Positions 4,501 through 37,400 of a stretch of 64,000 nucleotides of DNA are shown one piece after another (positions within the stretch are counted from its first letter, which is position 1; each line of letters opens with the position of its first letter). The stretch is from the NCBI RefSeq assembly GCF_964194025.1, contig NW_027450442.1, positions 1-64,000 of the forward strand, given 5' to 3'. The stretch comes from Convolutriloba macropyga (taxonomy: Eukaryota). The position numbers and the translations under genes were made by a program. The notes under the pieces were generated by a model that saw only the letters and a program-made list of their open reading frames with translations, was not told the DNA's origin and made no database searches.

Positions 4501-4735
4501 AGCTTGGTTCCTGTCGTGGGGCTGAGAAGATTCCTACACCCGGTTGGAACAGCGGGGTAGTTTTCGGGTATGCACTGAACCTTTTGTCAGTTCTGTCCTG
4601 TGTGACATTCTTAGGAGGGTCGACCACAACGTTTGGTGATAGTGGCCGGCTAGGATCGGACTGCTCGGCTACGGATTTGAGCCAGTCCTGCGATATTGCT
4701 GGCTTTTGTCTGGATCTCACACTTTCGATTATCAC
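1493..4735 (-). pseudogene. BEL/Pao gag-protease-reverse transcriptase segment (1080-aa ORF)
   Basis: ORF track: DUF1759-like capsid, CFNCLRTGHRSRDC knuckle, CDTGSSISF protease, NFYMDDFL RT. Ends at a frameshift near 1540. Confidence 0.95.
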
Positions 4736-4757
4736 CTGCTTCTGATCCAGATGCTCT

Positions 4758-5738
4758 TTAGCTTCCCTTAGTCAGTTCCAGTTTTAGAACTCTTTCTTCC
4801 TCATCAGCCTCGGCCTTCTTCCTCTCATTTTCAAGCTCTCGCTCATGCTGCCGCAAGCGCAATTCGTCTTCTTGTTGTGTCAGTTGTAAACGCAACTCTT
4901 CCTCTTGTTGTTGTTGCTGGTGCTGTAATTGTAAGCGTAATTCTTCTTGCCGTCGACGCAATTCTATTTCCTCACGTTCCTTCTCTAGCTGACTTTGACG
5001 CTCTCGCAGCCGTTGATCGGCTTCTTTCTTTGCTCTCATGTTTTCGAGTTCTAAGTTCTCAATCTCGCGCCTCCTTGATGAACGTGAGTTGGCAATACTG
5101 GGTTCTTTTTTGCTTCGGTGCGTTCCAGAATGCCTATAGGTTACTTCAACGTTCTCTTCGACATTTTCTGTCACTCCGTTTCCTGTATCAATTACAGTCT
5201 CGTTTGGGTCCTTATCACCTGCCGATGTAGATGACACCAACGATGTTTGATTTCCACTCTCTACGGTTTGCTGGTACTTTTTAAGTAGATCTGTAAGTTT
5301 GGCCATTTCGATATGAGTTGACATGCGCTTTTGCTCTGGTTTGACAAGTCGGATCACGTCTTTCCAATTAATGACTTCAGTACGATACTATTCAATTTCT
5401 TTGAGTCCTGGTACCTTCTCGATGAGCCATTGCAGTACCTTTTTCCTTTCGCCCAATTTTCGCTCAGTGTCGGCATCGAAACTCTCTAAGTACTTTGGCT
5501 TCAGGAGTTGTCTCTGTTGCTGTCTGTTTTCTTTCAGCTCATCATATGTCTCAAAGAAGCATCGATACACTCTTTCAGCTGTCACTGTTTTATTCTGGGC
5601 TAGTTGTGCTTTTACGGCAGTGTCATGCCGGTCAAAGGTTTCCAGCAATTCGGTTTGCTCCTTTTCTAGCTTCTTGAGTTGGCCTGACATCTTGTAGTCA
5701 GTCGTTTTCCAATGTCTATCGGGGCTCTTTCCAGCCAT
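4758..5738 (-). pseudogene. BEL/Pao gag N-terminal coiled-coil region with premature stops
   Basis: ORFs 5388-5999 and 4758-5357 are in the same frame, separated by one TAG at 5388-5390. E/Q/R-rich coiled coil. Probable start MAGKSPD near 5738; the part of the tracked ORF above about 5896 overlaps the LTR. Confidence 0.8.
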
Positions 5739-10597: not shown

Positions 10598-13500
10598 ATT
10601 NNNNNNNNNNNNNNNNNNNNNNNNNNNNNNNNNNNNNNNNNNNNNNNNNNNNNNNNNNNNNNNNNNNNNNNNNNNNNNNNNNNNNNNNNNNNNNNNNNNN
10701 NNNNNNNNNNNNNNNNNNNNNNNNNNNNNNNNNNNNNNNNNNNNNNNNNNNNNNNNNNNNNNNNNNNNNNNNNNNNNNNNNNNNNNNATGGATTCATCCC
10801 TAAGTTCGACTATTGCTAAATTTTTTGTATTCTGTTTTTCATTGCTCAAATAAAAAAACTTATTTGGTGAAAAATTGATTACTTTAAATTTTTTGTACGA
10901 TGGTCCCTCAATAATTCACTGTGTATGATAATTCCCCCATATTTAATTGTGGTGTGTATAATAGGTCGCCATAATAAAAATAATACTAATAACANNNNNN
11001 NNNNNNNNNNNNNNNNNNNNNNNNNNNNNNNNNNNNNNNNNNNNNNNNNNNNNNNNNNNNNNNNNNNNNNNNNNNNNNNNNNNNNNNNNNNNNNNNNNNN
11101 NNNNNNNNNNNNNNNNNNNNNNNNNNNNNNNNNNNNNNNNNNNNNNNNNNNNNNNNNNNNNNNNNNNNNNNNNNNNNNNNNNNNNNNNNNNNNNNNNNNN
11201 NNNNNNNNNNNNNNNNNNNNNNNNNNNNNNNNNNNNNNNNNNNNNNNNNNNNNNNNNNNNNNNNNNNNNNNNNNNNNNNNNNNNNNNNNNNNNNATGAGA
11301 ATAATAATTTTTATTATAATCATAATAATAATGTTAACAGTAAAAATTATACTAATGTTTTTATTATTACTATTTTTATTATTGTTATTATTATTATTAT
11401 TACTATTATATTTATGAAAATTATTATTAACATTGTTATTATTAGTATTATTATTATTTTTATTATTACAATATCTTTTTATGGATCCATCTCTTAGTTT
11501 GACGATTGCTAATTTTTTGTCTCAATCCTCTCCATCTATCAGAGAAAGCAATTCATAATTGTTTTTTAGAAATGGTTCGATCAAAGTCTTTTGTCATTGT
11601 TTTACCTTCAAAAATGGATCTCTAACAAATAATAATTGTCTTCCTAAAGATTTTTGGCTTAATTAAATTCATGATTATATTTTTGATTAAATTCCAATTT
11701 TTCAAAGCAATTTGATTTAATTGTTACATGTATGTTTGCTTGTACACCTATAATTTTTCACCCAAACTGTTGTGATAGATGATAATGATTGGTTCGACCA
11801 ATCCTGTTTAATACCATTGTCGTTGCCACTAGCACGACTAATTAAATTCCAAACATTGTGTTTTGCATTCATATTGATATTTTGATGTATTTCTAAAAAA
11901 AATGATTGATGCTGTAGTTGTTAGATTGTTTGCTTTCATGCTGCCTGTTGGTTTGTCTAGTATAATCTGTTTCTTGTTAATTTTTTCTCACTTCAAGAAA
12001 AACTGAAAGTGAAGAGCATTTTACTTTGATCTAATTCTAATTCTAAATCTATTTAGATTCATTTTTATTAGATTTTAGCAACAATTTCAAATTTTGAGCT
12101 TAAGTCATCAAGATATCCCCTGTTATATGTTGGGTTTTGTGTGTTTTTTTACAATGAAAAATTCCTATTCGAAGTAGACTTGAACAGCTGTTACCGAATC
12201 CGTAACGCTAAATCTGCGGTTTACCAGTGCACTAGCTGTCTATTGAGAGTGGCGCAGGATATGCTACATATGACAAAAATTTCCCGACTGCGAAGATCAA
12301 CTGGCAAAAATAAAAGAACCGAACTCTGTCAAGTTCTTACCGGCTATTGAGCAGAAACATATCTGCACATCCACTTCAAGAACTGCAAAGGCAGCTCTGG
12401 ATGCTAATCGCGAGTAAAAGGAGAACAAACCCGCTGATCTGAAAAACATCAAAGCAGGCTGTTGTATAGGAAGCCCTCAATATTTTTTTAAAATAATTTG
12501 ACTGTTTGATAGGACCCCATTTTTAATAAAAATCAGGATTTAAAAGATGTTTAACTTGGTTTTTTTGCGCAATTTTGTGTTTATTCCTTGTTTTTGTCTT
12601 CGTCTTCAGTCGGAAGTTTAATTCGCATAAAAACGTGGTCAACAATTTTTGTATAAATGGGCCGTTAAATTATTTTTTAGCATTTGTCTGGTATGAGGCG
12701 TCCCAATTACTAAAAAAATTGTCTGTTTTTTGCTATAAGGCTTTTATTTGCAACAACGAATGCGCGTTTACTGTGGCCCAGTTTGACATCGTAAATTGAA
12801 AATTACAAACATCACCATGGAGATGGAGGAATTTTTTCGGTTATGGTGCGCCCTCAATAATTTTTATTTTAGCGAACGAAAAATTAGGTCAATTAAAAAT
12901 ATGTTCCCGAAAAGATGTTCATACTTTAAACTCAGCAGGGACGCTTTTTTGTATTCTGTTTTTCATTGCTCAAATAAAAAAATTTATTTGGTGAAAAATT
13001 GATTACTTGAAATTTTTTGTACGATGGTTCCTCAATAATTCACTGTGTATGATAATTCCCCCATATTTAATTGTGGTGTGTATAATAGGTCGCCATAATA
13101 AAAATAATACTAATAACATTATTAATANNNNNNNNNNNNNNNNNNNNNNNNNNNNNNNNNNNNNNNNNNNNNNNNNNNNNNNNNNNNNNNNNNNNNNNNN
13201 NNNNNNNNNNNNNNNNNNNNNNNNNNNNNNNNNNNNNNNNNNNNNNNNNNNNNNNNNNNNNNNNNNNNNNNNNNNNNNNNNNNNNNNNNNNNNNNNNNNN
13301 NNNNNNNNNNNNNNNNNNNNNNNNNNNNATGAGAATAATAATTTTTATTATAATCATAATAATAATGTTAACAGTAAAAATTATACTAATGTTTTTTTTA
13401 TTACTATTTTTATTATTGTTATTATTATTATTATTACTATTATATTTATGAAAATTATTATTAACATTGTTATTATTAGTATTATTTTTATTTTTACTAT

Positions 13501-14399: not shown

Positions 14400-16817
14400 T
14401 AGAAACTTATTAATCAAACATTAATATTTTCTAATTCATAACAAGATAAACTTAGGTTTTCTTAAAATAGTTTAATAAAAAAATTTGGTTGAATCCTGCA
14501 ACCTTTCTGTCTATTGAAACTCTTTCGTGTCGTTTAAGCATTTCCGCTGCAACTTTTTGTTTAAATTTGGTCTTCGACGTTTCTGTTCTAATTGTAATTG
14601 GAAGTGTATTCCTTTTTCGTATAAAGTTAAGAACAATTGAACCATTACTCCATTTTGACTTTCATTTTTCTTCAAAGAAAAGGTTATGGGTTCGTTTGTT
14701 TGCAATGAATGGCACGTTTTCTAAAAATCTGAACTGTTTTTTAGAGCAATTTTTTGTTTGTTCGAGAATATTGACAAACCCATTTAATGACACCCGTGTT
14801 ATTTGGAGCCCTGCTTGAAAGATTTTAGTCTCCAGAAGTAGATCTTTGGCAATATCGTATTTGGTTTTCATAAAGCAAACTTTTATGTCCCAGTTTATCT
14901 GTTTGTTAATTCTGTCAATAGAGTAAGATCGTAAATTTTGAAAAAAAATGCACTAAAATCTAAATGAGACAAAACTAGTGATTTAAAAAGATTTTTTCTT
15001 ATTTTTTAACGGTACCTGATAACAAACCAAATATAATGATTTGATTGCTGAAACTATTTTACTGATAACCTATTTAGTTAATTTTGGTATACCAGTTCCC
15101 AATCAATTATTACACCTAAATATCTACCTTTTTCAGATGCTTCGAATCGGTGTCCTTTGGAATCGACAGTTTCAATGATGGGCAATTTTTCATTCCTGAA
15201 CTTTATTAACTCCTTTTTTTCCTCATTCAACTTTAACTTGTTTTCTTTCATATATTGTTCTGTCTTGGAACACCGTGATTTACGAAATTCCAATCTAATT
15301 TTGTGATCTCAATTTTTACACTCTGTTTTCTATCACAAAGAAAGGAGTTTAATAAGGTTCTTGCATTCTCTTCAATTCCATACCTTTTTATTTTGTTCAT
15401 AAAAACATCTATAGATATTGAGCTGAAAGCCTTTGCTAAGTCTAAAACAACTGTGACAACAATTTCGTTTTCGTCAACGCATTGGTCTATTTTTTCAGTT
15501 AATGAAATGATAGTATCGAGACAGGACTTTTGCTTTTGAAATCCGAATTGATTCTTGTTAATCAGACCATTAAGATTTATGTGGTGAGTTTGTTGTTCAA
15601 GTAGTAATTGCTCAAAAAATTTAGCTAGAGTTGGTGACCGATATGGGTCGATAGTTTTCTGGTTCTAGTGAGTCTCCTTTCTTATAAACATGTGTAACAT
15701 GGGCTGTTTTCAAAACATTAGGAAACATTTTCGTTTATACATTCATTGACAACAAATTGTAAATGAGTTCCAATAGAGAGTTTACTATCTTTTAGCGCCC
15801 ATGCTGTTATGTATCCCAGTCCGGGCAATTTATGCGTAGGTAGAATACTAATAACATTATACAATTTTTTTTCTGGTGACTGGTCGGAAGCTAAATTCCG
15901 GTCACTCAAATGTTAGGGAAAAATGACTTGGAGAAAAGTCTTTGCCTTTGTATAATCTGAGCCCCGCAAAACAGTTATTAGGAATATTGGCAATCTTTCT
16001 GTCATTCTCAACAAAATAACTATCTTCCCTTAATTTGTCAATTTTTTCTATTTGACTGTTGGAGTTGATCCTGTTTTTGATGAAGTTCCATTGTTTTTTT
16101 GAAGTTGGTAGCTGCTGGAAAAAACTTTTTGGATAATCATCTGCAGCTTTTTTTAGTTTTCTGTTCACTGAATGGCGTAAAGACTTGTAAAAGTTATAAA
16201 TTTATGGATTTGGATTTTTCTTCCACGCAATAAAGAGACAGTGTTTTTCACTTAAAAGACTACGTAATTCCTTTGTCAATCACTGCTTTTGTTTTTTTGG
16301 TATTAATTTCTGCCAACTTCAAAATTGCATGACAATTCAGTATATTTTCGAGAATGTCAATAAATTTCAGAAACATTTCGTTAGGCCCATTTATCTGGTA
16401 TATAAGCAACAAATCTTGCAGCGCAATATCACGATTCAATTTTGATCTTAAATATTTCTTGGTATTACGTATCAAAAACTGTCTTTTCTTGTTACTGTGA
16501 TCTATTATTAATGATGAGTGATATACTATTGTGAAGTGATCAACTCCAAGAGTCGACTCTAGAACATTGGCCTCAAAACTTTGGTTCTTCGAAATCAAAC
16601 AGTGATCAATTACAATTTTTTCCCCATTTGTCCATGTTGCCTCCGTTTCATTAACGTAACATAGCCCATTGTTTGCTGTGAAAATATCAAGTGACTGTAT
16701 ACTTTTGCGCCTAACAAGTTTATTTTGTAATTTCTGAATAAAATTAGAGTATCTGTATACGAATACACTATTTGCGAGTAAAAGGAGGACAAATCCCCTG
16801 ACCTGAAAAATAATCAT
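14400..16817 (-). pseudogene. CR1/L2-like LINE ORF2 remnant (end of AP endonuclease, RT with internal deletion)
   Basis: TWTNG...IDHCL...LGVDHFTI (APE end), SIGTHLQFVVNECI, KKGDSLEPENYRPI, VLDLAKAF, NHGVP followed by a deletion that removes the YADD region, then RYLGVIID. Clearly homologous to ORF2 at 43135-46048. Confidence 0.9.
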
Positions 16818-17866
16818 AGCAAGTTGATGTATAAGAAGCCCTCAATATCTTTTTGAATAATTTGACTGTATGATAGGACCCCATTTTTAATAAAAACCAG
16901 GATTAAAAAGACGTTTAATTTGGTTTTTGTGTGCGATTATGTGTTTATTCCTTGTTTTTGTCATCAGTCGGAATTTTAGTCGGCATAAAAACGTGGTCAA
17001 AAACTTTTGTATAAGTGGGGACTAATAATTGTTTAGCATTTGTCTGGTATGAGGCGTCCCAATTATTTAAAATAATAACAATCCCTTTTTTGCATTATGC
17101 ATTTTTTTGCAATAACGAATGCGCGCTTACTGTGGCCCAGTTTGACATTTTAAAGTGAAAATTACAAAACTCACCCTGGAGGAGGAGGAGTTTTTTGTGT
17201 ATGGTGCGCCCTCAAGAATTTTTATTTTAGCCAACGAAAAATTAGGTCAATTTTTAATATGTTGCCGAAAAAATGTTCATACCTGAAACTAAGTATGGAC
17301 GCTTTTTTGTATTCTGTTTTTGATCTCTCAGCCGAATATTAAGCCTTTTTTGGTAAAAGTTTGTATACCAAAAATTTTTTTGTACGATAGTTCCTCAAAA
17401 ATTCACTGTGTTTGATAAGTCCCCCATATTAAATTTGTGTTATGTATAATAGGTCCCCATAATAAAATTAGTAGTTATAAAAACAATAATAATAATAATA
17501 TAAAAATAAAAATAATAATATTAATAAAATTAATAATAACAAAAAAAAGTTTTAGTAAAAGAAATGATAATAATAACTTTTATTTTAATCATAATATTAA
17601 TGATAACAGTAATATTTATACTAATATTTTTATTATTACTATTTTCATTATTACTATTAACATTATTATAAAATTTATTAGTATTATTATAATTAATATT
17701 AATATTATTACTNNNNNNNNNNNNNNNNNNNNNNNNNNNNNNNNNNNNNNNNNNNNNNNNNNNNNNNNNNNNNNNNNNNNNNNNNNNNNNNNNNNNNNNN
17801 NNNNNNNNNNNNNNNNNNNNNNNNNNNNNNNNNNNNNNNNNNNNNNNNNNNNNNNNNNNNNNNNNN

Positions 17867-19404
17867 TTTAGTTTTCTGTTCACTGAATGGCGTAAAGACT
17901 TGTAAAAGTTATTAATTTATGGATTTGGATTTTTCTTCCACGCAATAAAGAGACAGTGTTTTTCATTTAAAAGACTACGTAATTCCTATGTCAATCACTG
18001 TTTTTGTTTTTTTGGTATTACTTTCTGCCAACTTCAAATTTGCATGACAATTCAGTATATTTTCGAGAATGTCAATAAATTTCAGAAACATTTCGTTAGG
18101 CCCATATATCTGGTATAAAAGCAACAAATCTCGCAGCGCAATATCACGATTCAAATTTGATCTTGAATATTTCTTGGTATTACGTATCAAAAACTGTTTT
18201 TTCTTGTTACTGTGATCTATTATTAACGATGAGTGATAAACTATTGTGAAGTGATCAACTCCAAGAGTCGACTCTAGAACATTGGCCTTAAAACTTTGGT
18301 TCTTCGAAATGAAACAGTGATCAACTAACAATTTTTTTCCCCATTTGTCCATGTTGCCTCTGTTTCATTAACGTAACATAGCCCATTGTTTGCTGTGAAA
18401 ATATCAAGTTACTGTCTACTTTTGCGCCTAACAATTTCATATTGTAATTTCTGAATAAAATTAGAGTATCTGTATACGAATACACTATTTGGGAGTAAAA
18501 GGAGGACAAATCCCCTGACCTGAAAAATAATCATAGCAAGTTGATGTATAAGAAGCCCTCAATATCTTTTTGAATAATTTGACTGTATGATAGAACCCCA
18601 TTTTTAATAAAAACAGGATTAAAAAGACGTTTAAATTGGTTTTTGTGTGCGATTATGTGTTTATTCCTTGTTTTTATCATCAGTCGGAATTTTAGTCGGC
18701 ATAAAAACGTGGTCAAAAATTTTTGTATAAGTGGGGCCTAATAATTTTTTAGCATTTGTCTGGTATGAGGCGTCCCAATTATTAAAAATAATAATAATCA
18801 TTTTTTTGCATTAATGCATTTTATTTGCAATAACGAATGCGCGCTTACTGTGGCCCAGTTTGACATTTTAAAGTGAAAATTACAAAACTCACCCTGGAGG
18901 AGGAGGAATTTTTTTGTGTATGGTGCGCCCTCAAGAATTTTTATTTTAGCCAACGAAAAATTAGGTCAATTTTTAATATGTTGCCGAAAATATGTTCATA
19001 CCTGAAACTAAGTATGGACGCTTTTTTGTATTCTGTTTTTGATTTCTCAGCCGAATATTAAGCCTTATTTGGTAAAAGTTTGTATACTCAAAAATTCACT
19101 GTGTATGATAAGTCCCCCATATTAAATTTGTGTTATGTATAATAGGTCCCCATAATAAAATTAGTAGTTAAAAAAATAATAATAGTAATAATATAAAAAT
19201 AAAAATAATAATATTAATAAAATTAATAATAACAAAAAAAATTTTAGTAAAAGAAATGATAATAATAACATTTATTTTAATCATAATATTAATGATAACA
19301 GTAATATTTATACTAATATTTTTATTATTACTATTTTCATTATTACTATTAACATTATTATAAAATTTATTAGTATTATTACAATTAATATTAATATTAT
19401 TACT
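17867..19404. repeat. Near-identical tandem duplicate of 16152-17712
   Basis: Direct comparison; ORFs 17975-18352 and 16260-16817 encode almost the same peptide. Bounded by N gaps. Confidence 0.9.
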
Positions 19405-20648
19405 NNNNNNNNNNNNNNNNNNNNNNNNNNNNNNNNNNNNNNNNNNNNNNNNNNNNNNNNNNNNNNNNNNNNNNNNNNNNNNNNNNNNNNNNNNNNNNNN
19501 NNNNNNNNNNNNNNNNNNNNNNNNNNNNNNNNNNNNNNNNNNNNNNNNNNNNNNNNNNNNNNNTTTTTTAGTTATGGATTCATCCCTAAGTTTGACTATT
19601 GCTAAATTTTTGTCTCAATCCTCTCCATCTATCAGAGAAAGCAATTCATAATTGTTTTTTAGAAATTGTTCGATCGAAGTCTTTTGTCATTGTTTTACCT
19701 TCAAAAATGGGTCCCTAACAAATAATAATTGCCTTCCTAAAGATTTTTGGCTTAATTAAATTCATGATTATATTTTTGATTAAATTCTAATTTTTCAAAG
19801 CATTTTGATTTAATTGGTACATGTATGTTTGCTTGTACCCCTATAAATTTTCACCCAAACGGTTGTGATAGATGATAATGATCGGTTCGACCAATCCTGT
19901 TTATTACCATTGTCGTTGTCGCTAGCAAGACAAATTAAATTCCAAACATTGTGTTTTGCATTCATATTGATATTTTGATGTATTTCTAAAGAATGATTGA
20001 TGCTGTAGTTATTAGATTGTTTGTTTTCACGCTGCCTGTTGGTTTGTCTAGTATAATCTGTTTCTTGTTAATTTTTTCTCACTTCAAGAAAAATTGCAAG
20101 TGAAGAATACTTTAATTTGATCTAATTCTAATTTTAAATCTAATTAGATTCAATTTTAATAGTTTTTAGCAACAATTCTTTCAAATTTAAGCTTATGTCA
20201 TAATGATTTCTCCTGTTTTATAAGTTGGGGTTTGCGGATTTCTATTTCATTAAAAAACTCTCTATTCAATTTAGAATTGTAAATTATAAGTTTTTCCTCA
20301 ATTCTACTCTAGTCAACTGTTTTTAATTTCTGGTATCTTCCATTAGAAATTACAAAACACTCATTTTTATAATGGATATCAGAATCATATTTAACCAATT
20401 AGCATCAGCACTGATCAACGCTGGCTTTCTAAATATTTGTAAAAGTTTTTTTCCAAATCTGTCTGTAAAAGAGCTTTTAAGTCACTGTAAAATAAAAAAA
20501 AATCTGGACAAGCTGTTTAGTAAAGATTGAATTGTTGTCTTATAAAACAGCTACCCCTCTCAATCCGAGGACTTTCCATGAACTCTACCTTCGGAGATAC
20601 TTTGTAGATCTGCTAAATTTTTCTTTCATTTTTTAGATTTATCAGATC

Positions 20649-21126
20649 AGAAATGTTTATATTGGCGCCTCCGCTAGCATGAGCTGCGATCGGCACCCAT
20701 ATAAACATTACTTTATTTCCCTTTGTTTTATCCACTATATTTCATTTTCTATTCCATCAAAATCTATCATTTCGTGTCTCACTTGGCACAGTGGTTAACT
20801 CGTTGAGTTGAGTTAAGTTGCCTTAGCAAACGGAAGGTTTGGCGTTCCTTCCTCACTGTCTCCAGTGAACGTCCCCCGATTTGATTAATTACTATTAAAC
20901 TAAGTGAGATAAAAAAAACAAAATTCACAGTTCTTAAAGAGAGTGATCCCTGCTTTGAGACTCTATACGGGACACACTGTGATGGGTATAAACTCAAAAA
21001 CGCTGAGATCGGTAGCAACACAGTGATCAGTGTTTTTACGTTTAGTATAACGTTTTATAATAAATCAAAAATTGATTATTCATATTGTTTCATTTTCAAA
21101 ATTAATTTTTATCCAAAATACCAGCT
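20649..21126 (+). repeat. Left terminal inverted repeat of the Maverick-type element
   Basis: Reverse complement of 25355-25832; the mirror ORFs 20779-21021(-) and 25460-25702(+) reflect this. Confidence 0.95.
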
Positions 21127-21159
21127 CAACTCTGTTATAGATATTGACTCATGGTCTAA

Positions 21160-21902
21160 GACTCATAAAATCTAAACTCACCATTACAATTTTTAATACC
21201 TTTATCGTCAAATGGATCAATAGCTATTTTGTATTGTTCTTTTGTTTCTAAATTATGTTTTTTTACTATCAATAGTATAATTAGTTACATATTTACTTTT
21301 TGCATCATAAATAGCATTTTTATAGTCTTCAATAGTAATTTGGTTTTTAATGGTAGCTTCTGTTATAACTTTTATCTTTTTCTCTTCCTCTCTTTTAAAT
21401 GTATTAAAACAATATGCTTTATCTTTAAGGAATCCGGATTCTATAATAGTATCAATAGGTATTTAGTCTTTCATTTTACCTAACTCCGAGTTGTGTAATA
21501 TATCTTTTATCTTATTCTTTCCAGTTTCTATATCATTATCTAAAAGAACATTTATGTTTTGAAAATACTATCAGTATCTGTGTAATGATAATCATAATAT
21601 AACTTTTTCTCAAAGTATTCATATATAGCTTTATGAATAAACATTTTAGCTTTCTTTCTTATAACAAAACCATTATAAATAAACTTCTCTAACTTAACAC
21701 TACCTCTTGGTTAATGTACAGCCATTAGTGCATCATCCAACTCTACAGAATATTCAAAACTAAAATATTTTACAATTTTAATATAACTATCCACATCATT
21801 AACTAACTCTACAACTTGTCTATTGTACACAATTTCTTTTCCATAGAAAGCATTATTCATTAACTTAAAGAATACATCACCAAATTTATCTCCCTTAGCT
21901 TT
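21160..21902 (-). pseudogene. Protein-primed DNA polymerase B, C-terminal fragment (second, inverted copy)
   Basis: FKLMNNAFYGK (motif B), HYTDTDS (motif C, about 21570-21590), ELGKMKD, KIAIDPFDDK; stops and frameshifts present. Confidence 0.92.
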
Positions 21903-24900
21903 CAATCAATTAAACATAAAAAGAATGAGCGAGTATATAATAGAAATAAATTTACTGAGAGTGCTAATGTAAATATAGAACAAAAGATAGATAAACAGAA
22001 TCCTGAACTAGAGGGAATAAAGTATTGTGATAATTGTGACATGTATCTAAATAATAATACTGAATATAGAAAACAAATAGGAACCCTAAAACATAGGAAT
22101 AATGTAAGGATAAATAATGGGAAAATAATAAAGAATGGCAGTAAGTTTGAATGTGTAACATGCAAGTCTACCTTAAGTGAATATAGTGTGGATCAACATT
22201 TAAAAACAAAGATGCATCTAGATAATGTTAAGGGTAAAGATAAGGATAATATATCTAAAGATAATTTTGAAACGCGGTCAATGACCCATAATATAACTGA
22301 AGATAGTACAGGCTATTGCGATACATGTTACCCTAGATATAACAATAAAAATAAACACACTGAATCAGATGAACATAAAGAAAATGTTAAACAAAAAAAG
22401 CTTGCTGATGGTATGTGGAGAGAGAAAGTGGTGAGTTAGGATTAGATCATAATATGAAGTATATTCAAATAATAATAACAAGTGGTAATTATGAAGAACC
22501 TAAATTGTTGAAAGTATTAGAGACAATGTAAAACATACATCCCCATATTAAGTTTAACACCTTTGATGTAGTAAAATATACAGAACCTAAAGATGATAAG
22601 TTAGAAGAAAATGAATTCATTCACATTTAGACTAACGACTAGACAACATAATGGACCTAATGACTTGGATATGATTAATAGTGAACTTGAGACTAGAATG
22701 CAAGAACAAAAAATGAAACAATCTGGTTGGAGCATGCAAAGATTTTTTAAAAGAACTATGTATATGCACAGGTTTTATCCTAGTGGTGGTTGTCATGTAG
22801 AACTTCACTTCAATCAAGATGTATACTTAATATACATAATAATGATAGTAAAGGTTTATTTGGGCGTTTAATAGCTTATCTACATCCTGCTAAATGTAAG
22901 TTTAATAGAACTAGTAATTATAATAAAACTGAACATAAAAATGAGATAAAACTACCAAAGTTTCCACCTCCTTATGGATAAAAAGATAAAAAGAAAATGC
23001 AAGAGTTAAACAAAGATAAAGTATTATTTAATGTTAACTTAAGTTATTTAATATAAATTAATCTAAATAAAAAAAATTGATAATCTTGTTTTAATCAATC
23101 ATAATGATCCTAAAGGATGTAAGTTTTTATACTGGAATAATCATTATTTCCTACGTAAAGATGTATCATTTTTATTAAGATCATCTACACATAAATATTA
23201 TCCATGTCTAAAATGTTGTGTGTTATTTCGAACTGAAAATGCGTTAAATAAACATTTAGAATTGTGTAATAATATTGGAAAAAGAATATTCCATCTTGAT
23301 GATTATCTAAAGTTTGATAAGTTCCACTATTAAAACAGAGTACCATTTGCTATGCATCATGATTTTGAATGTATAATAAAAAACAGAAATTACATTCCTA
23401 TTGCTTTTGGGTTTTATATATAAAAAGTGATTATTCTGATATCTTAGAAGATAAGTAAGAAAGTTTTTGTGGAGAAGATCCACAAAATGGCGGCTGGACC
23501 GAAGTCTTTGATTGGTTTATAAGTAGGATGAGTTATTATGATAAATTATTCAAAGAGATATTTAGTATAAATATTCCATTAAAAGGAGATAGTATTACTC
23601 CACTTCATATTGAATGTTATTATTGTAACGAAGATATGAGTGAAGACATTGTTAGAGATCATGATCACCTAAATGGTAAATATAGGGGATATGCTTACAA
23701 TAAGTGTAACCACCAATCCAAGTACATTTTTGTACCAATATATACATTTAATTCTACTAATTATGATAACCACCTATTTATAACTAAACTAGCAAAGAAG
23801 ATAAGACTTAAAGTATTGACTAAAACTGATGAGAATTATAATTGTATTGATATGAGTCATGCTAAACCATCAGATATGTTTAGGTTGTTCCATCCACTTA
23901 GCTTAGATGGTATAAGTAAAACAATGAATGATAAAGAGTGTGTAACAGTAAACACATTTGAGTAAGAGAGACAAAAATCTATATTCCCATTTGAATAGTT
24001 AGATAGTATAGATAAACCTAATGAAACATCATTACCACATAAGGAAGTATTCTGTTCTAAGTTGAAAAAAGTGGTATTACTAATGAAGAGTATAAGCAAG
24101 CATTAGATTGTTGGAATGAGTCTGGATGTGAAACAATGAATAAAATTTATGATGTCATATCTTAAAACTGATGTATTATTACCAATGGATGTATTTGAAA
24201 GGCTAAAAGATAAGTGTTTAGAATATTATGAAATGGATCCTTGTTACACATATTCCACTGATGTATTGTTACCAGTGGATGTATTTGAAAGGCTAAAAGA
24301 TAAGTGTTTAGAATATTATGAAATGGATCCTTGTTACACATATTCCACTCCTGGATTAACTTGAGTATGTGGATTGAAAAATACTAATGTTAGACTTAAA
24401 TATTATAAAGAAAATACAATTAATTTTTATGATAAAAACATCATGTTATTAGAGGTGGGTTAGCTTCACTATTGGTTGATTGTCATGTTGAATGTAAAAA
24501 TAAACAAATAGATCCTAAGTATAGAGGTAAAGAGAACTTTTTAAAATACTTAGACTTCAACTCATAATATTCCTCTGCCATGGTGCAAGCTTTACCTACT
24601 GGTGTAATGATCCAGAAACTGGCTTTGCAGAAAATAATTCCATCAGCTCTAGTAATAATACAGGCTATATCTATACCATTGGTGTAATGTATAATGATGA
24701 GTTTCAACAAAAAACAAAGAAGTATCCTTTCTTTCCTGAAAAGACAAAGGCTAAGATTGATCAGTTTACATATTATCAAAGTGAAAATGAAAAGCAAAGA
24801 TACAAACCAAATCAAAATTTGATGTTACAATTAACGGATAAGGCAGACTATGTAATTGATGGAGAGATGTTAGTTTGGTATTTAATTAAAGTTTTAAGGT

Positions 24901-25253
24901 TGGAAGATGTTACAATTAAGCAAAAGTTAGAGTATAGTAAAAGTGAAAGATTAAAATCTTATATTGAGTTTAACATTCAGAAAAAAAGAAGCTAAAGCTA
25001 AGGGAGATAAATTTGGTGATGTATTCTTCAAGTTATTGAATAATGCTTTTTATGGAAAAACAAAAGAAAATGTGTACAATAGACAAGATTTAGAGATAGT
25101 TAATGATGTGGATAGATACATTAAATTAGTGAAACATATCAGTTTTTAATATGCTGTAGAGATTGATGATGAACTAATAGCTGTACATAAAACATGAGGT
25201 AAAGTTAGAGAAGTTTAATTATTTTGGTTTTGTTATATTGGAGAAAGCTAAAT
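21903..25253 (+). pseudogene. Protein-primed DNA polymerase B (Maverick type) with N-terminal C2H2 fingers; lacks start and motif C
   Basis: QSGWS motif, HDFECII (Exo I), CYYC...VRDHDHLNGKYRGYAYNKCN (endonuclease VII-like insert), FNSTNYDNH (Exo II), YLKTDVLL (Exo III), IRGG, YLDFNS*YSSAM (motif A), FKLLNNAFYGKTKEN (motif B). Many stops and frameshifts. Confidence 0.93.
24167..24346 (+). repeat. 90-bp in-frame tandem duplication inside polB
   Basis: 24167-24256 repeated at 24257-24346 with two substitutions; peptide TDVLLP(M/V)DVFERLKDKCLEYYEMDPCYTYS occurs twice. Confidence 0.95.
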
Positions 25254-25354
25254 GGGTTTTAGACCATGTTTCAATATCAGTGATGTTGATTCGAAGATTA
25301 TTAATTTTTTCATATAAATATTAGCAAAAGAAATTAACAATCATAAAAGATTTA

Positions 25355-25832
25355 AGCTGGTTTTATTGGAAAAAAATTAATTTTGAAAATGAAACAATAT
25401 GAATAATCAATTTTTGATTTATTTTAAAACGTTATACTAAACATAAAACACTGATCACTTTGTTTCTACCGATCTCAGCGTTTTTGACTTTATACTCATC
25501 ACATTGTGTCCCATATACAGTCTCAAAGCAGGGATTACTCTTTTTAAGAACTGTGAATTTGGTTTTTTTTATCTCACTTAGTTTCATAGTAATTAATCAA
25601 ATCGGGGGACGTTCACTGGATACAGTGAGGAAGGAACGCCAAACCTTCCGTTTGCTAAAGCAACTTCACTCAACTCAACGAGTTAACCACTGTGCCAAGT
25701 GAGACAGGAAATGATAGATTTTGAAGGAATATAAAATGAAAAATAGTGGATAAAACAAAGGGAAATAAAGTAATGTTTTTATGGGCGCCGATCGCAGCTC
25801 ATGCTAGCGGAGGCGCCCATATAAACATTACT
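25355..25832 (-). repeat. Right terminal inverted repeat of the Maverick-type element
   Basis: Reverse complement of 20649-21126; ends ...CATATAAACATTACT. Confidence 0.95.
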
Positions 25833-27102
25833 CAGATCTTCTCCTTAAAAAAGGCCCAAGCATAATTTCAAAAACTATCTTTACTGTTAATCTTTAAAAA
25901 AAATTGCATGGTTTTTGTTTGATAAAATTTTGTGTTTTAAACCTACTGACGTCTCATCTTTATATAGTGGCATAGGTCCTTTCTTTTTTAAAATCTGTTA
26001 GTGCATTAATAAATAGTTCTCTGGAGAGTTGTCGTTGTTGTTCTTATTGATGTTTCATTAGGGAACCTGCTGTTGACATAAGCGTCATTGCAGCTTTGCT
26101 CCTCTACTTTAATTTGAAACAAAGTTAACTGAATAAATTATTTGTGTAACTATTATCCGTGGCTAATTTTTAGATAGCTTACACTTCCCGTCATTTATTG
26201 TCTTATGTCCAGCCTTTGTTTTTAGCATTCTAATTTTTCCACTAATTTTATTGGATTCACTTGTTTTTCATCCTCAATTTGTTTTTAATAGTGCTTTTTG
26301 TTCATTATCAATATAATTACCAATTTTTTAATAGGATATTCAAAAGTTAGATAAAATTATTCAAAAAAAATTTTACTCATCTTTTTTATAAAACTCCGAA
26401 ACCAATTCGGTGATTTTTAGTTCAATTTGTTTTGTTATTGGACAGGAAAAATCTAAGCTAAAATTCAGTGTCGCACATCGAATACTCATAGTACAATTAT
26501 TTTTGATTCAATCGAGAAACGTATTTTGTTTCTAAAACTGACCGAATAAATCGTTGAAGTTGACAGATTTATGTTTTCAAAATTGGAGCAAAATTGAAAC
26601 ACATTTATTCCATCTCATTTGGACATTTAATTATCTAACCCGGTTTGAGAAAAAAAAACGGAAAAATATGTAAGGTAAGCGGTGAAAAGTTGTTTTTTTT
26701 CGCCGCGATTTGCGTACATAATGTTGCCGTGAAATGCGGTGAAATTATGTAAGTTCACCGCTACAAACGAGCGAGCGTACACGGATTCGAAACTCTCACC
26801 TCCTGAATGTCCGCCACTTGTTCTTCCACTGCTCCACTTCTCACTATAATCAAGCATATCTGTTTTGAATTTAAATCAAATTTACTCTTCATTTTGTAAA
26901 ACAAACGCGTTGAACTTTTGAAAGATTAGCGGTGAAATGTGGTGATTTTTTGTAACTTCATTGCTTACTCTAGTGATGAAATTGCATAAATTCAGCGCGT
27001 AAAAAAAGTTTCAAAAAGATGTATGACTGGTCGTGGGTAAATTTTCGGAGATAATTTTAATAAATGTATCTTAACTTCGTTGAACAAAAACAAATCGGAG
27101 CG

Positions 27103-27398
27103 TTTTCTAAGCGATGAAATTATGTTATTTCACCACTAAGTTAAGTGGTGAATTTGTGTAATTTTATCTCTTTCACTGCTGATCTCACACAATTTTAACA
27201 CTATTTCTAAGCAGTGAGTTTATGTAATTTCATCACTAAGTTACGCGTTGAATTTATGTAATTTCACTTCATTCACTGCTGTTCTCATACAATTTTAACA
27301 CTTTTTCCTAAGCGGTGAAATTATGTAAGTTTACCTTTTAGTTTAACGGTGAATTTATGTAATTTCACCGCATTCACTACTTATCGTACATAATTTTG
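27103..27398. repeat. Three tandem units of about 99 bp containing palindromic GGTGAAATTATGTAATTTCACC-like motifs
   Basis: Units begin TTT(T/C)CTAAGC at about 27103, 27203 and 27303; related motifs at about 26735-26762 and 26930. Confidence 0.8.
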
Positions 27399-28149
27399 AG
27401 TTGAATGGCGGTGACGCCTCGACCCGGGAAGTGTCATATCCCAATTACTAGCTTCCTGGTCCCCAAGGAATATACGATTTCTCTGACTTCGATGTCCGGT
27501 TTCAACTTGGCCCCTGAGTGACCTAATGTGACTTTTCAGAGCACTTTGCTCGGTTTTCAGATCATCGTTTCGGGACTCTCTTGTAAGGGAGACAAAAGAG
27601 GAAGCACATATTCTTTCATGTGATTATGCGAGTGTTTGTAATTTTAATTTGGATATGTCGGTTCATCAGGACTATCAAAATTGTAAAATGAGCGCCATCA
27701 TCAACGTCTATCTGATTACTCTACTCGAGAACAATTGTTCCGTCTGTATATGAACATATTGTTTGACTAGTAGTTTGACTATTAATTGACTCATAAACGG
27801 AGAACCATGCAAGATCTTGGGAAATTGATTGACATCAACAAATTTCAGTGATGATCTGTGTACAATTTAAATGCTAATTGCATGTTAGCAAATAGAGAAA
27901 ACCAAAAAGGCGTACTTGCAAAGTTTAAGATCCCAACATTCGACCTCTTCGTTTTTTCTGTCAGCTTAATGACTTGCTAATGGTAACATGACTTATGGTC
28001 GAAACAATTTTTTATGGAAAAACTGGTTCCAGCAGGCAACAATCACTGATCGAGTGAACTATTTTCGTTGTCTAAGACAAGAAACCAGAAGGCCAGAGGT
28101 AAATTTGTTTTCCGCTGCAGGAGAATCATGAAAAAAACGACAAATCACG

Positions 28150-31100
28150 ATGTCGATTTCTTCAGACGGCTGGCTTGAAGCCGAGAATTTTAAGACTTAT
28201 GTTATACTCAATGGCATTTCCGATGCAAATGTATGTTTAAAATGCGGATTAATTTTAGAATTAGTAAGTGGTAATTGCGTCGCAAATGGTGTTTTAGGTG
28301 GTAATTGTGATGCAAATGCTTTATTGCGTATATGTGAATTGGTATTTAGTAATGTAGGTAGTTGCGGCGCGGATGGCCGTTTTAACTTGTGTGAAGGCAA
28401 ATTTGACTTTTATATGTCATTAAATTTTTTAGTTGCGTTTTGTTTGTTTGTAATCAGGTGTTTCATAGAATCACGGATTTTTGATATTGTTGCTACAACG
28501 AAGTGTTCGTCATATGTAGATATCTTTTTAGCTCTCGCATATAGGTTCCTTGAAATATAGTCAACGAGACCCATTTTTGCACCTGGCAAATATTCTATTG
28601 TTAAGTTGTACGGAAGTAGTCTGTCTATCCATTGTGATAGTCGGCTGTTATAAGATTTGTTTGATCTGTGCTCCTTGAGTATGGACAGTAGAGCTCTGTG
28701 GTCTGTTACTACTGTAAAATTTTTTCCGTACAAATAGTATTTAAAATAGTCAACTGACCAAACTATTCCCAATAGCTCCAACTCATTATAACTATAGCGT
28801 TTCTCTGTTGAGTTGAGGAATCTTGATGCGAATGCTATTGGTTTCCAACTGTCTGGTGTATTTTGCTCCAATGCTGCTCCCAGTCCGGAACTGGAGGCAT
28901 CACATTTGACTCGAACATCATGTTTTGGATTATAGTGGCTATTTTCTGTGCTATTGGCAATTTTTTCTTTGATCAGATCAAAATGTTTTGTGTGTTCTTG
29001 TGTCCAGATAAACTTTACTGATTTTTTGAGAAGTGGTCGAAGTGGGTGACATAATTGTGCAAGCAAGATGTGGTATGAATTCTCCAATATAGTGTACTGA
29101 CCCTAAAAATGATCTAAGGCGTTTTAGTGTTGTTGGTGGTGGTATTGTTAAAATTGCTGCAGTTTTACTTTCTAGGGGTGAGATTCCAGTTTGTGTAAAC
29201 TTATAACCCAGCCATTCAATTTCGGTTTTTGCAAAATGACATTTCTGAAGATTAATTCTTAGATTATCGTCATCTAATTTTTTTAAACATTTGAAAACAT
29301 ATGCCAAATGGTCTGCTTCAGTGCCGGTACTGACGATTATGATATCGTCCAAGAAACAATATGTGTTTTGTAGACCTATAAGTGTATAGTCTATTGCTTT
29401 CTGAAATTCTGCCGGCATATCTGTAAGACCATAAAAACCAGTTTTGAATCTATATGTACCAGTAGATTCTCCACAGATGATGTTAAAATTACAGTGTTTT
29501 GCTGTGTCGTGGTGTAATTTTAATTGGCTATATGCATACTTTAAGTCTAATGTGGTGAAATAAGCTTGTTGACCGTTTTGTGTGTTGGTAAGGTGTTGTG
29601 ATATTGTATCAATTAGCATATCAATATTGGGCATTTGATATTTATTTTTATGTATGGCTTTATTTAATACTTTGGAATCTAATGCGAGTTGTATTGATTG
29701 GTCTTTCTTTACTGTGATAACGATTGGGGAGATGAAATGTTCGTCAGAGCAACTAGATAGTTTTTCGATATGACCTTCTGTCTGTAATATCTCTAATTCA
29801 TCCGACACTCTAGGTTGTAGATTTATCGGAACACGTCGACCTTTTTGATGCTTTGCTGTAAACTTTTGATGAACCTTTGATTTCGCTACATGTGTTTTAG
29901 ACAAACCAATTCTTGATACCTAATGAGGAAATTGCGTCGCGATTGTCTCTTTAATTTTACATGTAGAGGTATTAATGTTATTAACGCATTTACCATTTTC
30001 TGGTTGTTGTTGTACCACCGCAAGTCCCAGGGTTGTGAAAAGGTCCCTCCCGATTATGTTTCTGTGCCCATCTTCTACCACAGTCAACATAGCTGCTCTA
30101 TCTTTCCACTGATTGTAGGTTACTGTGGTTTCCAAATGTCCAAGAACTTTTATGGGTTCATTTGAAAAAGTTTTCAAGTTCCTTCTTTCTTTCGTGTCCG
30201 TCCACTTTGCAGATTTTGTGGTTCGGAGGGTTTGGTCTGCCAAAGTTTCTGTTATGATGCTAACTGCACTTCCAGAGTCGATCATTGCGAGTGCTCTAAT
30301 TTCTCCCAGTTTTACCTCTACATTTAATGGTTCCAGTTCATGTACCGAGTCAGACGAAATCACCGCCACGTAATCGTCCGAATCGCTGTCGTAGTTTGAG
30401 TCATACACCTGTTCATACAGTTGTTGGTATCTTGTTATGTAATTTACGGATTCTTCATCATCACTCGTTTCGGGAGACTGGTCAAATTGATTGACGTTCG
30501 TTTGTTGGGCTCTCTGTGTTTGTCCCTGTGACTTTTTCGGTTTGCGGCATTTTTTTGCGAAAGGGCCAATAATGCCACGATTATTACATTTCTTACCATT
30601 CGCGGGGCAAATCTGCGTATGGTTATGACTCCAACGAAGGCCACAATTCATACATTTGCTTGTGTATTGGTAATTCTGGTGCACAGTTGCGTATCGTGTG
30701 AAATCTCGCTTGGTTTGCGTATTTGGTTACTGTTGATTGAATTGACAGGATTTGTGCCTGACATCAAATTCCGGTTTATCTTTTGCTGATTCTGCGCCCC
30801 CATGTCCATTTGCATAGCTATCTCCAATGCTTTGGATTGCTCGACTTCTCTTTCAACAGTTCTTTTTGAGTCTCATGATCAATCATAATCGATATGAATG
30901 CATTGCAAATCAAGGTAGTTTCTTCACTACCAAGGGTACAATTTTCCGCTAGTTCTGTGAGACGACCATAGAAACTTTCAACAGACTCTCCTGTTTGCTG
31001 CTTACATGAATAGAAAACAAAGCGATCGTAAGTTATGTTACGAACTTTCGTGAAAGAATCCTCCATTGACTGCCACAATTCTTTGAAAGGTTGTTTCTCT

Positions 31101-34467: not shown

Positions 34468-37400
34468 CTAAATCAAACTAAGATTGAACTTGAAAGATTT
34501 GAGATTAGAATTAAATTCAGAAACCGTTGGGTCTTTTAGAAACTCATTCCAGAAATGATTTTTTATTATAGTTTTGAGAGCCCGCTTTTTAGGGATATTT
34601 CGCCTCAAGGTGAGAGGCAAATCGTTATACCAGTCAATTGCTTTTTTTGAAAAACAGTTTTGCATTATATTTGTTTTTTGGTTTGCTCCAAATGACAGCT
34701 TGTTTGTACGGTCATTCATTTTAGCACTTAGGATGGCTAACTTGAGTTCATCGAAAGCTGGTAGATCTGCTTTTAGAAGCTTTATAAAATATATAATAAC
34801 CCGATACTTTATGAGGTATTCTACTGGTAAAATTTTGTGTTTGATCTTGAGATCAGTGGTCCTGTCAAATTTGGTTTTATTGAAACGTGCCTTTATTCCC
34901 CAGTTCAATTGTTTATTTAGATTAACTCGAAGTGATTTTTTAAGACCTGAGAACAGAACAATTGGGTAATGCAGATGACTTAAAACAAGAGCGTTCAGTA
35001 AAGCAGATCTAGTTTTTTCAGGAAACATATTTTTGATGGAATAAATGACCTTTATGCCAACAGCGATTTTTCTTAGCACAATTTTTATTTCTTCATCGAA
35101 AGAAAGATTACAGTCAATATGAAATCCCAAGTATTTCACAACTTTTTTCTCGAGAACTGTACATCCGTTAACAACTATTTCTTCGATTTTGTTTCTTTTA
35201 GGGGCTCCAAAAATAATGAATTCGGTTTTGCTTTCATTTACATTTAACTCATTTTTCCTAAAAAAGTGAATGAGTTTAGCAATACTTTTTTCAAGATGTA
35301 ACTTTGATTCATCAATTGTTTTTCCACTGCAAAAGATAAAAGTATTATCAGCGTACGGGGTTATATTAGAATTAACATCAGTATCATCTTTCATATCATT
35401 TACATATATGTTGAAAAGCAGTGGGCCTAGCACAGTACCTTGTGGTACTCCACGGTTAAGTGCTATCCATTTTGATTCATACTTCGAGAATTTGACTTTT
35501 TGCACACGGTTTTCTAGATAAGATTTTAGAATTGTATTTGCTTGTGCACTAAAACCTAAAAGTTAAGTTTTGTGCAGAAGAATAGGATGTGATATCGAAT
35601 CAAAAGCTTTAGATAGGTCCAAAAAAAGGTCCTGTGACTATGTTTTTTTTATTGAGATCATATCTGATTTTTTCAGTGCAATATAAAAGAGCAACTGTAG
35701 TTCACAATTGTTTTCTGTATCCAAACTGTGTTGTTGCAAGCAATTTATTCTTCTCTAAATAGGCTAATATTTGATCTTGAAGAAGGATTTCAAAAATTTT
35801 AGCTAGAGCTCCAGTAAGCGAAATTGGTCGATAATTTATCGGATCTTCAGGATCATCTTTCTTGAAAAGAGGCAACACGTGGGCACGCTTAAGGTGGTCA
35901 GGAAAGCGTTGTTCGGTTAAGAATTGGTTGAACAAAACAACAGAGAGGTTCAGCTCTGTGATCTCTTGCATCTTTTAAAGCCCAAGCTGGAATGAGTGAT
36001 GAACCCAACGGTTTTTTAACATTTAAATTGTTGAGTATATCAAATATCTCCTTGGTTGTCGTTTACCTGAATATAAATTTGTTACTGTTGCGTGCCGGAT
36101 TATTACAAAATTGATACTGTTCTTTTTTTACCAAAATATTCACCTAACGCTGAAAATTTATAGTTGAGAAGATTGGCAATATCATTTCCATTGGTCAAAA
36201 CCGTTCCAAAACTGTTTTTGAGTCTTGGTATTTCTGTCTGTGTTTTTTCACAGTTTCTGATTTCGTTGATAAAATTCCACCTTTCTCTTGTACCTTTTAA
36301 GTTTTGAAACACATCTAGCAGATGTTTTTCATTTTCCTGCTTCAAAACATTTTTGTTCTTTTTATTTGATGTCTTTGCAAACTTTTTTACTGTGTTTTTT
36401 GATATCCATTGTTGATGTAGCGTTAGTTTAGGCTTGTCATGGCGTATGAAGACGGTCTTTTGTGGAGCATGCTTTTTAATTACCGTTTCCAATGACGAAC
36501 AAAAGTTTTTATACATGATTTCATGATTTTCTGATAAATAAAATGATATCCAATTTATCTTTCCAATATCTAGGGAAAAAGCATTTTTAGAGTAGTTTGT
36601 TTTATCAAACACAATTTTTTTGATAGCTTCTTTTTTATATTTAAGGGTTTCACCAATTAAAGTAAGCGGGGCTGAGTGATCACTTTTTAGAATCGAGTCT
36701 AGTGTCTGGAAACTAAAAAAATTTTCGCATATAACATAGTCTATTAGCGACTTCGTTCTTGACGTTTCTCTTGTTGCTAAAGTTTTATTTGAATTCAATA
36801 ACCGTACGTCAAGATCAGAGTTTCTAGGAGATTTCTTTCATTGCAATTAAATTAATTAAGGTTGTTGTCACCTAGTAGAAAAATTTTTTTATTTTCACTC
36901 GCTGCTCTATCTAAACCCAGGGCTAGCTCTTCCAAAAACAAATTTATTAGTTGTTTTTTTTTGGACAGTAAGCCAAATTTATCAACGCGGGCTTTTTATT
37001 TATTTTACACTCTACCCAAACACTTTCAAAATGGTTTTTTGACATTGTCTCTAGATCATTTCGTTTTTTGGATGAAATTTTTCCAGAACAAACAAAAGAA
37101 TACCACCGCCTTTATTTTTCTCTTGAAGATCAGTACGTCAGTCGCATCTGAAGGACACTAAGTATTCTGAGTGTATCGACCAAAACGGAATATCGTTAAT
37201 TGATTTCAACCACGTTTCTGGGAAGCCCGAAATACAGTTGTCACCTAGGTCAGTTAGAAAATTCTTAAGGAGCAACCTTTGTCCAAGCACTCTTTGACAA
37301 TTTTGATGTAGAAACTTTACTTGATCGTTGTATTTTTCATTAAGGTGGTAAACTGCCTGTAATTGAGAGGTGGCCCTGGGTTTAATTCTACGTCACCTGA

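Follow-up and report, generated by a model that had tools for sequence, protein, structure and literature searches.

How an element comes to carry the same end twice is the question raised by a stretch of DNA from Convolutriloba macropyga, positions 1 to 64,000 of contig NW_027450442.1 (the window, in the following the whole 64,000 nucleotides), which holds at 20649-25832 a Maverick-like element whose two terminal inverted repeats (TIRs) are both preceded by the 3' part of the DNA polymerase gene polB pointing outward. An earlier note on this sequence had regarded the element as a one-off copy-back genome that resulted from a template switch, possibly between two related Maverick variants, and was then replicated and integrated in trans. 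Our analysis points to another origin. The window copy very probably derives from a full palindrome by internal deletion after insertion, and its parent belongs to a family of whole-element palindromes. We consider these elements, with a rough probability of 0.65 for the whole model, to be helper-dependent snap-back Mavericks that possess a protein-primed polymerase of their own and are supplied with integrase by conventional Mavericks.

The window copy and its full-length counterpart

At C6:3528133-3541506, a 13.4-kb full palindrome was found that has the host flanks of the window element, its target site duplication (TSD) and the breakpoint of its 478-bp deletion in one arm. The left flank (20194-20648) is 89% identical between the loci, and the right flank (25833-26133) is common to both. 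Since sequence is also shared farther out on both sides, namely at 26138-28202 (90%), where the right-hand match restarts about 29 kb further along C6, and at 12202-13127 and 16768-19402 (79-83%), the window contig is a diverged haplotype or an old duplicate of the C6 region. Relative to C6, the window copy is shorter by about 8,356 bp. This deletion of approximately 8.4 kb took away the greater part of the left arm together with the apex and the inner portion of the right arm, and its junction at 21901-21903, placed by comparison with C6:3531871-3540226 and nine other breakpoint contexts, shows a 2-bp microhomology (TT). Given that flanks, TSD and the 478-bp deletion are the same at the C6 palindrome, it was most likely in the chromosome, once the element had integrated, that the 21902/21903 junction formed, and not by a template switch beforehand.

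The anatomy given in the earlier note was confirmed by raw translation. The 6-bp TSD CAGATC, identical to that of the C6 copy, stands on the plus strand at 20643-20648 and 25833-25838 and encloses a left terminal region (20649-21138, the outer 490 bp of the left arm) and a right terminal region (25343-25832) with the last letters ATTACT; AG/AGT-type ends flanked by a TSD of this length are those of Mavericks (TSD of 5-8 bp). On the minus strand, the left arm encodes the 3' part of the protein-primed polymerase (pPolB; 21160-21902) with motif B, motif C (YTDTDS, near 21567-21584) and the C-terminus, with stops and frameshifts inside. The right arm carries on the plus strand (21903-25252) the N-terminal zinc-finger region, an EndoVII/HNH insert (about 23612-23713), the exonuclease and motifs A and B of a broken pPolB that contains a 90-bp tandem duplication at 24167-24346. 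The plus-strand junction 25252-25253 has a short ATG microhomology and coincides with a breakpoint of the C6 copy. The 478 bp lost here comprise motif C and the C-terminus of polB; the earlier note had put this loss at about 480 bp including YTDTDS. Both frames start mid-domain at 21902/21903, all polB frames of the window copy are interrupted, and the ATPase is absent by deletion. The first ~64 nt of the left terminus fold as an imperfect hairpin (DNA fold z -4.6). No RNA data set was listed as holding the sequence. The flank hit by the insertion (window 20194-20648, stretch L034:7128-7454) has weak similarity to an integrase (E 2e-5) and about 40 weak genomic matches, and is thus itself an older mobile element.

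That a single template switch between two Maverick variants produced a 5.2-kb defective genome, which was then replicated and integrated in trans, is extremely improbable in the light of these data. The 5.2 kb are indeed enclosed by one TSD pair, and the two motif-B copies (21645-21902 and 24994-25252, an inverted match of 84% with gaps) are, as had been noticed, more diverged than the TIRs (222/253 ungapped columns versus 460/489 aligned bases identical; Fisher p=0.004). However, the synonymous enrichment proposed for these differences was not seen (15/6/10 by codon position, a ratio of nonsynonymous to synonymous change, dN/dS, of 0.78 over 84 codons), and the C6 copy is likewise less alike in polB (85.4%) than in the TIR (91.1%). 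Because the left arm of the window is about as near to its own right arm (87.7%) as to the best other copy (88.4%) and C6 has the same pattern, a switch between two variants is not needed, and a two-variant origin of the arms found no support. Moreover, C6 has a full palindrome with the same motif-C deletion at the same site, and full-length relatives carry polB in both arms, a finding of the kind that the earlier note had itself named as refuting its reading. When the junction was searched for elsewhere, with other TSDs, using a 301-bp query, no second locus was present among the best 40 of 1057 candidates; the window alone matched end to end, and the 39 other matches listed end at 21902. Replication and integration of a defective genome in trans therefore does not apply to the window copy with its post-integration deletion, but the idea survives in spirit for the parent family, which has a snap-back, helper-dependent look.

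It is also very unlikely, though slightly less so, that assembly or long reads at a palindrome produced the 8.4-kb deletion as an artefact and that the haplotype is really full-length. The contig of the window is small and unplaced, assembly contigs in some cases stop shortly past an apex, and among the read contigs listed in four runs none bridges 21902/21903, an absence that carries no weight. Contigs of both the window and the C6 form are present in these four runs, which come from two samples of one study that may itself be the source of the assembly. However, contigs in 4/4 runs span the two ends of the element and the 478-bp deletion with 0 differences, and window-specific sequence in the neighbourhood is matched exactly. 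In addition, the deletion is strongly asymmetric, with 1.25 kb of one arm and 3.9 kb of the other retained and 2 bp of microhomology, comparable asymmetric deletions occur in other copies, and the family-level result is independent of the window junction.

A family of whole-element palindromes

When zinc-finger region, ATPase and apex were used as queries, a family of dozens of 12-17-kb loci emerged, each consisting of two head-to-head arms. The palindromic build was present in 21/21 elements with both outer arms fetched, loci that had been picked as likely pairs, and their arm identity ranged from 85.8 to 97.3% (median 94.1). Among 18 less selected zinc-finger loci, an inverted partner was found in 12 and a central palindrome only in two, while two represent one deleted derivative and two are conventional. 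The 37 stretches fetched around ATPase matches that had been listed as unpaired, whose loci are not all independent, contained a convergent pair (25), a long inverted repeat only (6) or neither (6). As a lower bound, 56 of the ATPase matches listed (117 of 2982 candidates, one fragment row removed) fall into 28 convergent pairs and none into divergent pairs.

The arms of 5-7.7 kb are joined at a 2-5-nt loop and leave no room for the unique core that the Maverick definition places between repeats of 0.1-1.5 kb; self-alignment continues through the centre, the genome being self-complementary over its whole length. In the first subfamily, B1, each arm consists of the terminus, an outward pPolB, a small gene, an A32-like ATPase and a small gene that read inward, short repeats and the apex. 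TSDs and flanks differ between copies, which documents many independent insertions, and the 6-bp TSD of B1 is perfect in 8/11 copies, with one differing base in one copy, a mismatch in another and a damaged end in the last. The polymerase matches the pPolB profile PF03175 (E 7e-14 in a B1 arm, 1e-15 in an arm of the second subfamily, B2) and contains an Endonuclease_7-like insert (E 8.5e-5 to 3e-3). Of the two ATPases in conventional copies, it is the second that the palindrome ATPase (PF04665, E 1.6e-5) resembles, at about 27% identity, and not the protease-fused one.

In contrast to the doubled polymerase and ATPase, the remaining Maverick genes are absent from the arms. With a conventional integrase as tblastn query, a match was obtained in 1/39 palindrome stretches, where it lies in the flank, and in 0/37 further stretches; major capsid, minor capsid and protease were found in 0/39 palindrome stretches, and a protease-ATPase match in 1/37 further stretches stands outside the arm order. 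No protelomerase match was detected among 19 open reading frames (ORFs) scanned. With integrase, capsids and protease missing, the family is not an autonomous Maverick and looks like a snap-back satellite. Database homologues of the inner module number 41, each at least 57% identical and unnamed. A half element at C4244 and C3:11.24 Mb was considered as an integrated monomer parent and rejected, because the two loci are alleles of one deletion derivative (flanks 95% alike), in which sequence from the far side of the apex is retained. At C7:58.58-58.60 Mb, the inner-arm unit was noticed as a tandem array, and the copy at C15:10.277 Mb has a duplicated apex.

Hairpin apex

Where the apex has survived, only 2-5 nt stay unpaired between the arms and form a loop. 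When all fetched loci were surveyed, this was recorded at 19 loci (24 rows). A palindrome-centre finder that was also used misses centres where indels displace the arms. Three related apex types, GCA-GAA-TGC, GCAC-GC-GTGC and GCAC-GA-GTGC, occur in both orientations, and folding gave a near-perfect stem for two examples (z -21 and -17). For the first type, 22 genome matches with at most one mismatch were counted versus 3 for the reversed control. Among the stretches L144, L131 and L157, two contigs stop a few hundred bases past the apex and one turns to N about 90 bp past it; near-perfect palindromes may be under-assembled.

Conventional Mavericks and the exchange of terminus and polymerase

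The terminal 16-mer of the palindromes occurs at 833 places in the genome, and among the first 100 of these 19 elements could be end-paired by eye, of which 16 are conventional and three palindromic. This 16-mer is often doubled about 50 bp apart, because the B1-type terminus is itself an imperfect hairpin; such hairpins of ~65 nt were seen in the window (20649-20712) and in stretch L013:2480-2545, and also in conventional copies. The elements of this first conventional family measure 15-17.6 kb without insertions and have one polB and terminal repeats of mostly 270-900 bp, some of which extend into the 3' end of polB. In one conventional copy, genes were recognised for an rve integrase, a double-jelly-roll capsid and a second A32 ATPase, together with what are presumably a protease and a minor capsid, named by motif and position with no Pfam hit. 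Only the outer ~5 kb are shared between palindromes and conventional copies, with termini and polB end at 75-92% nucleotide identity.

The B2 subfamily combines the inner module of B1 (81-86% nucleotide identity) with another terminus and a different polB (65-70%), which reads inward in both arms. Among 35 close matches to the B2 polB, 26 form 13 convergent pairs, three of which may be one local triplication, four stand singly or as additional copies at loci of the palindromic type, and five lie in conventional elements. These five hold integrase and capsid, and the two with resolved ends show the B2-type terminus; B2 TSDs are perfect in 4/6 copies. B1 thus has its ends in common with the first and B2 with the second family of integrase-encoding elements of the same genome, and a single hairpin module has accordingly been coupled with the end and the polymerase from two helper families.

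The second conventional family (C4:24.42, C9:63.0, C9:45.24, C1:87.10 and C2:43.81 Mb) has the core genes of the first, a different inward polB, different ends and 132-bp repeats, and may represent a polymerase-plus-terminus replacement among autonomous elements. Conventional terminal repeats that reach the polB 3' end were recorded at C2:28425458-28441368 (L092/L093) and in L090, L096, L100, L113 and L117, and one such repeat of 907 bp includes about the last 250 polB codons. In stretch L091 (4300-5901, minus strand), a single ORF joins a protease-like N-terminus, which we take to be such from its motif with no Pfam hit, to an Asn/Asp-rich linker and a packaging-type ATPase; the second A32-like ATPase adjoins this ORF.

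Arm evolution and selection

In the polB tree, from which the short left arm of the window is excluded, the two arms are sisters in 15/15 elements, and the palindromes interleave with 16 conventional copies. The ATPase tree places arm pairs as sisters in 25/26 cases. On 13 shared elements the two trees reject each other (Shimodaira-Hasegawa test, p=0 both ways); the approximately unbiased test was run with 2000 replicates, under the number recommended by the program. For polB, the median dN/dS within elements is 0.79, as against 0.32 when palindromes are compared with each other and 0.26 when conventional copies are; the within-element value of the ATPase is 0.97. Once the decay within elements is subtracted, between-element ratios of 0.22 (polB) and 0.51 (ATPase) remain. 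All of these are uncorrected Nei-Gojobori counts on decayed copies and non-independent pairs. Since differences between arms are near-neutral and change between copies is purifying, the arms should have been nearly alike at insertion and the polymerase selected between insertions.

Proposed life cycle

Polymerases of this class are known to displace a strand by protein-primed synthesis from either end, and to our knowledge Maverick replication has been modelled and never observed in animals. What was seen directly is the family of palindromes with its genes, TSDs and conserved apex, and the full-length C6 sister; from these we infer the first five steps of the following cycle. The terminal-protein polymerase of the family would prime at either end and displace one strand, which, being wholly self-complementary, would fold to a duplex of ~7 kb with one protein-capped end and one closed loop. 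Synthesis primed at the protein end would then run on past the apex and restore a dimer whose two ends are alike. In the fourth step, this dimer would be inserted by the integrase of a helper, which generates the 6-bp TSD; only the dimer offers an integrase two free ends, which fits the TSDs around whole palindromes. Recombination with co-replicating helpers would, fifthly, exchange the cassette of terminus and polymerase, and a swap in one arm would spread into both by copying, as in B2. Integrated palindromes would finally decay, often with loss of the middle, as in the window copy. The dimer length of 12-17 kb is close to the 15-17.6 kb of the helpers, which would suit packaging in helper capsids. 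End-to-end self-complementarity, a selected polymerase and module swaps in both arms together are the footprint expected of strand-displacement replication via a fold-back intermediate, here in a satellite that exchanges origin and polymerase between two helper families.

Several points weigh against this model. Replication and integration are deduced from integrated copies, and the dN/dS counts have the weaknesses named above. At the C6 locus, 26 derived sites are common to both C6 arms versus 9 and 8 for the other pairings, and the C6 arms cluster together in the polB tree, apart from the window arm. In several copies, the sites private to that copy but present in both arms are evenly distributed among the codon positions. 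This suggests arm-to-arm conversion in the chromosome after insertion, so that sister arms need not stem from replication alone. The copy at C5:41.185-41.200 Mb has arms of mixed origin (dN/dS 0.33), with different closest conventional relatives across the first ~1.3 kb of polB; homogenisation of the arms is therefore not obligatory. The highest arm identity among the fetched palindromes is 97.3% and none is near 100%, so that current activity is not demonstrated. A conventional parent of the inner module was found neither in 37 stretches nor in viral contigs. The central 250-620 bp are gone in many copies, as expected of unstable palindromes, and the window junction has no bridging contig among those listed. 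Separately, we note that the 478-bp asymmetry of the C6 arms was kept despite the signs of conversion.

The signs of conversion would also suit another explanation, according to which conventional Mavericks had terminal repeats that grew inward until they met, chromosomal gene conversion mainly keeps the arms alike and the apex has no role. Conventional repeats of 270-900 bp that in part reach into polB point in this direction, as do butterfly polintons, whose terminal repeats of ~2 kb contain capsid and protease genes (10.1101/2025.02.07.637071). The polintons described there resemble the palindromes in the doubling of genes within terminal repeats and, in the case of polB-less polintons that were amplified nonetheless, in helper-dependent spread. 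However, they retain a unique core and double capsid and protease, whereas the palindromes have no core, double polB and ATPase, and share a conserved apex. Conversion can yield neither one apex at many loci, nor differing TSDs around complete palindromes, nor a swap of polymerase and terminus in both arms of separately inserted B2 copies, and purifying selection between insertions requires a replicating phase. We therefore regard inward growth as improbable.

Somewhat less improbable, but still unlikely, is that the true replicon is linear, ~7 kb long, with a terminal-protein end and a covalently closed hairpin end, and that the dimer is an intermediate which is sometimes caught by the integrase and otherwise opened at its extruded apex, where the EndoVII/HNH domain of the polymerase may make the cut. 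The fold point is kept in three apex types with 2-5-nt loops, the polymerase has the Endonuclease_7-like insert, and a plasmid with one hairpin and one terminal-protein end, as predicted for the folded form, is known from Enterococcus (pELF1, PMC6863802), although pELF1 is bacterial, 143 kb in size, not integrated and without Maverick genes. However, conventional elements, which have no apex, carry the same insert, no integrated monomer was found apart from the half-length deletion derivative with sequence past the apex, and the mixed-origin C5 arms suit a persisting dimer better.

It is a possible but distinctly tentative reading that the elements form a separate class of animal satellite replicon, a linear DNA closed by a hairpin at one end and bearing a terminal protein at the other, in which the conserved apex module repeatedly captures origin and polymerase of whatever Maverick virus is encountered and the integrated dimers record strand-displacement replication. 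For genome annotation it matters that palindromic elements mimic inversions or duplications and that deleted copies mimic one-off copy-back genomes, as in the window.

Comparison with known systems

The palindromes share with Polintons/Mavericks (adintovirus-like) the protein-primed polB with its HNH/EndoVII insert, the AGT...ACT ends, the 6-bp TSD and the length of 12-17 kb. Nematode Polintons have been described in which pPolB carries an HNH insert and is traded between families (10.1101/2023.08.22.554363). For terminal repeats, the same source gives 100-1500 bp, and 46-1447 bp are given elsewhere (PMC8097293). In contrast to these published Polintons, the repeat is here the whole element (arms of 5-7.7 kb), all genes are doubled, and integrase, capsids and protease are absent. 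The accessible parts of PMC6431247, PMC8502044 and 10.64898/2026.10.13.758929 do not describe a whole-element palindromic form. Nor was a description of whole-element palindromic Mavericks found in the literature covered, which did not extend to subscription journals, Repbase reports and supplementary element tables and in which most titles were judged by listing.

A parallel in form is found in the snapback genomes of adeno-associated virus and the copy-back or snap-back genomes of RNA viruses, self-complementary subgenomes that keep one end twice and need a helper (PMC8235507). The palindromes likewise are self-complementary, have one end twice and are predicted to need a helper. Unlike such defective genomes, which are transient by-products, they constitute a stable, selected endogenous lineage of many copies with its own polymerase, integrated with TSDs. 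Short palindromic phi29 replicons and palindromic Streptomyces plasmids are further relatives in form. Virophages as well as Polinton-like viruses (PLVs) of Halocafeteria have terminal palindromes of 52 nt, mostly on elements without pPolB (10.64898/2026.07.28.741278), which resemble the ~65-nt hairpins at the very ends reported here. They are short end features, and a whole-element palindrome was not seen in the accessible part of that source.

Further features of the window

Outside the element, the window contains a BEL/Pao retrotransposon ORF and three other reverse-transcriptase fragments (1493-4771, 28978-29919, 34468-35562 and 44065-45261). A tandem duplication of ~1.7 kb (93-97%) lies at 16152-19563, and a 34/100-bp repeat array with internal inverted symmetry at 26736-27404.

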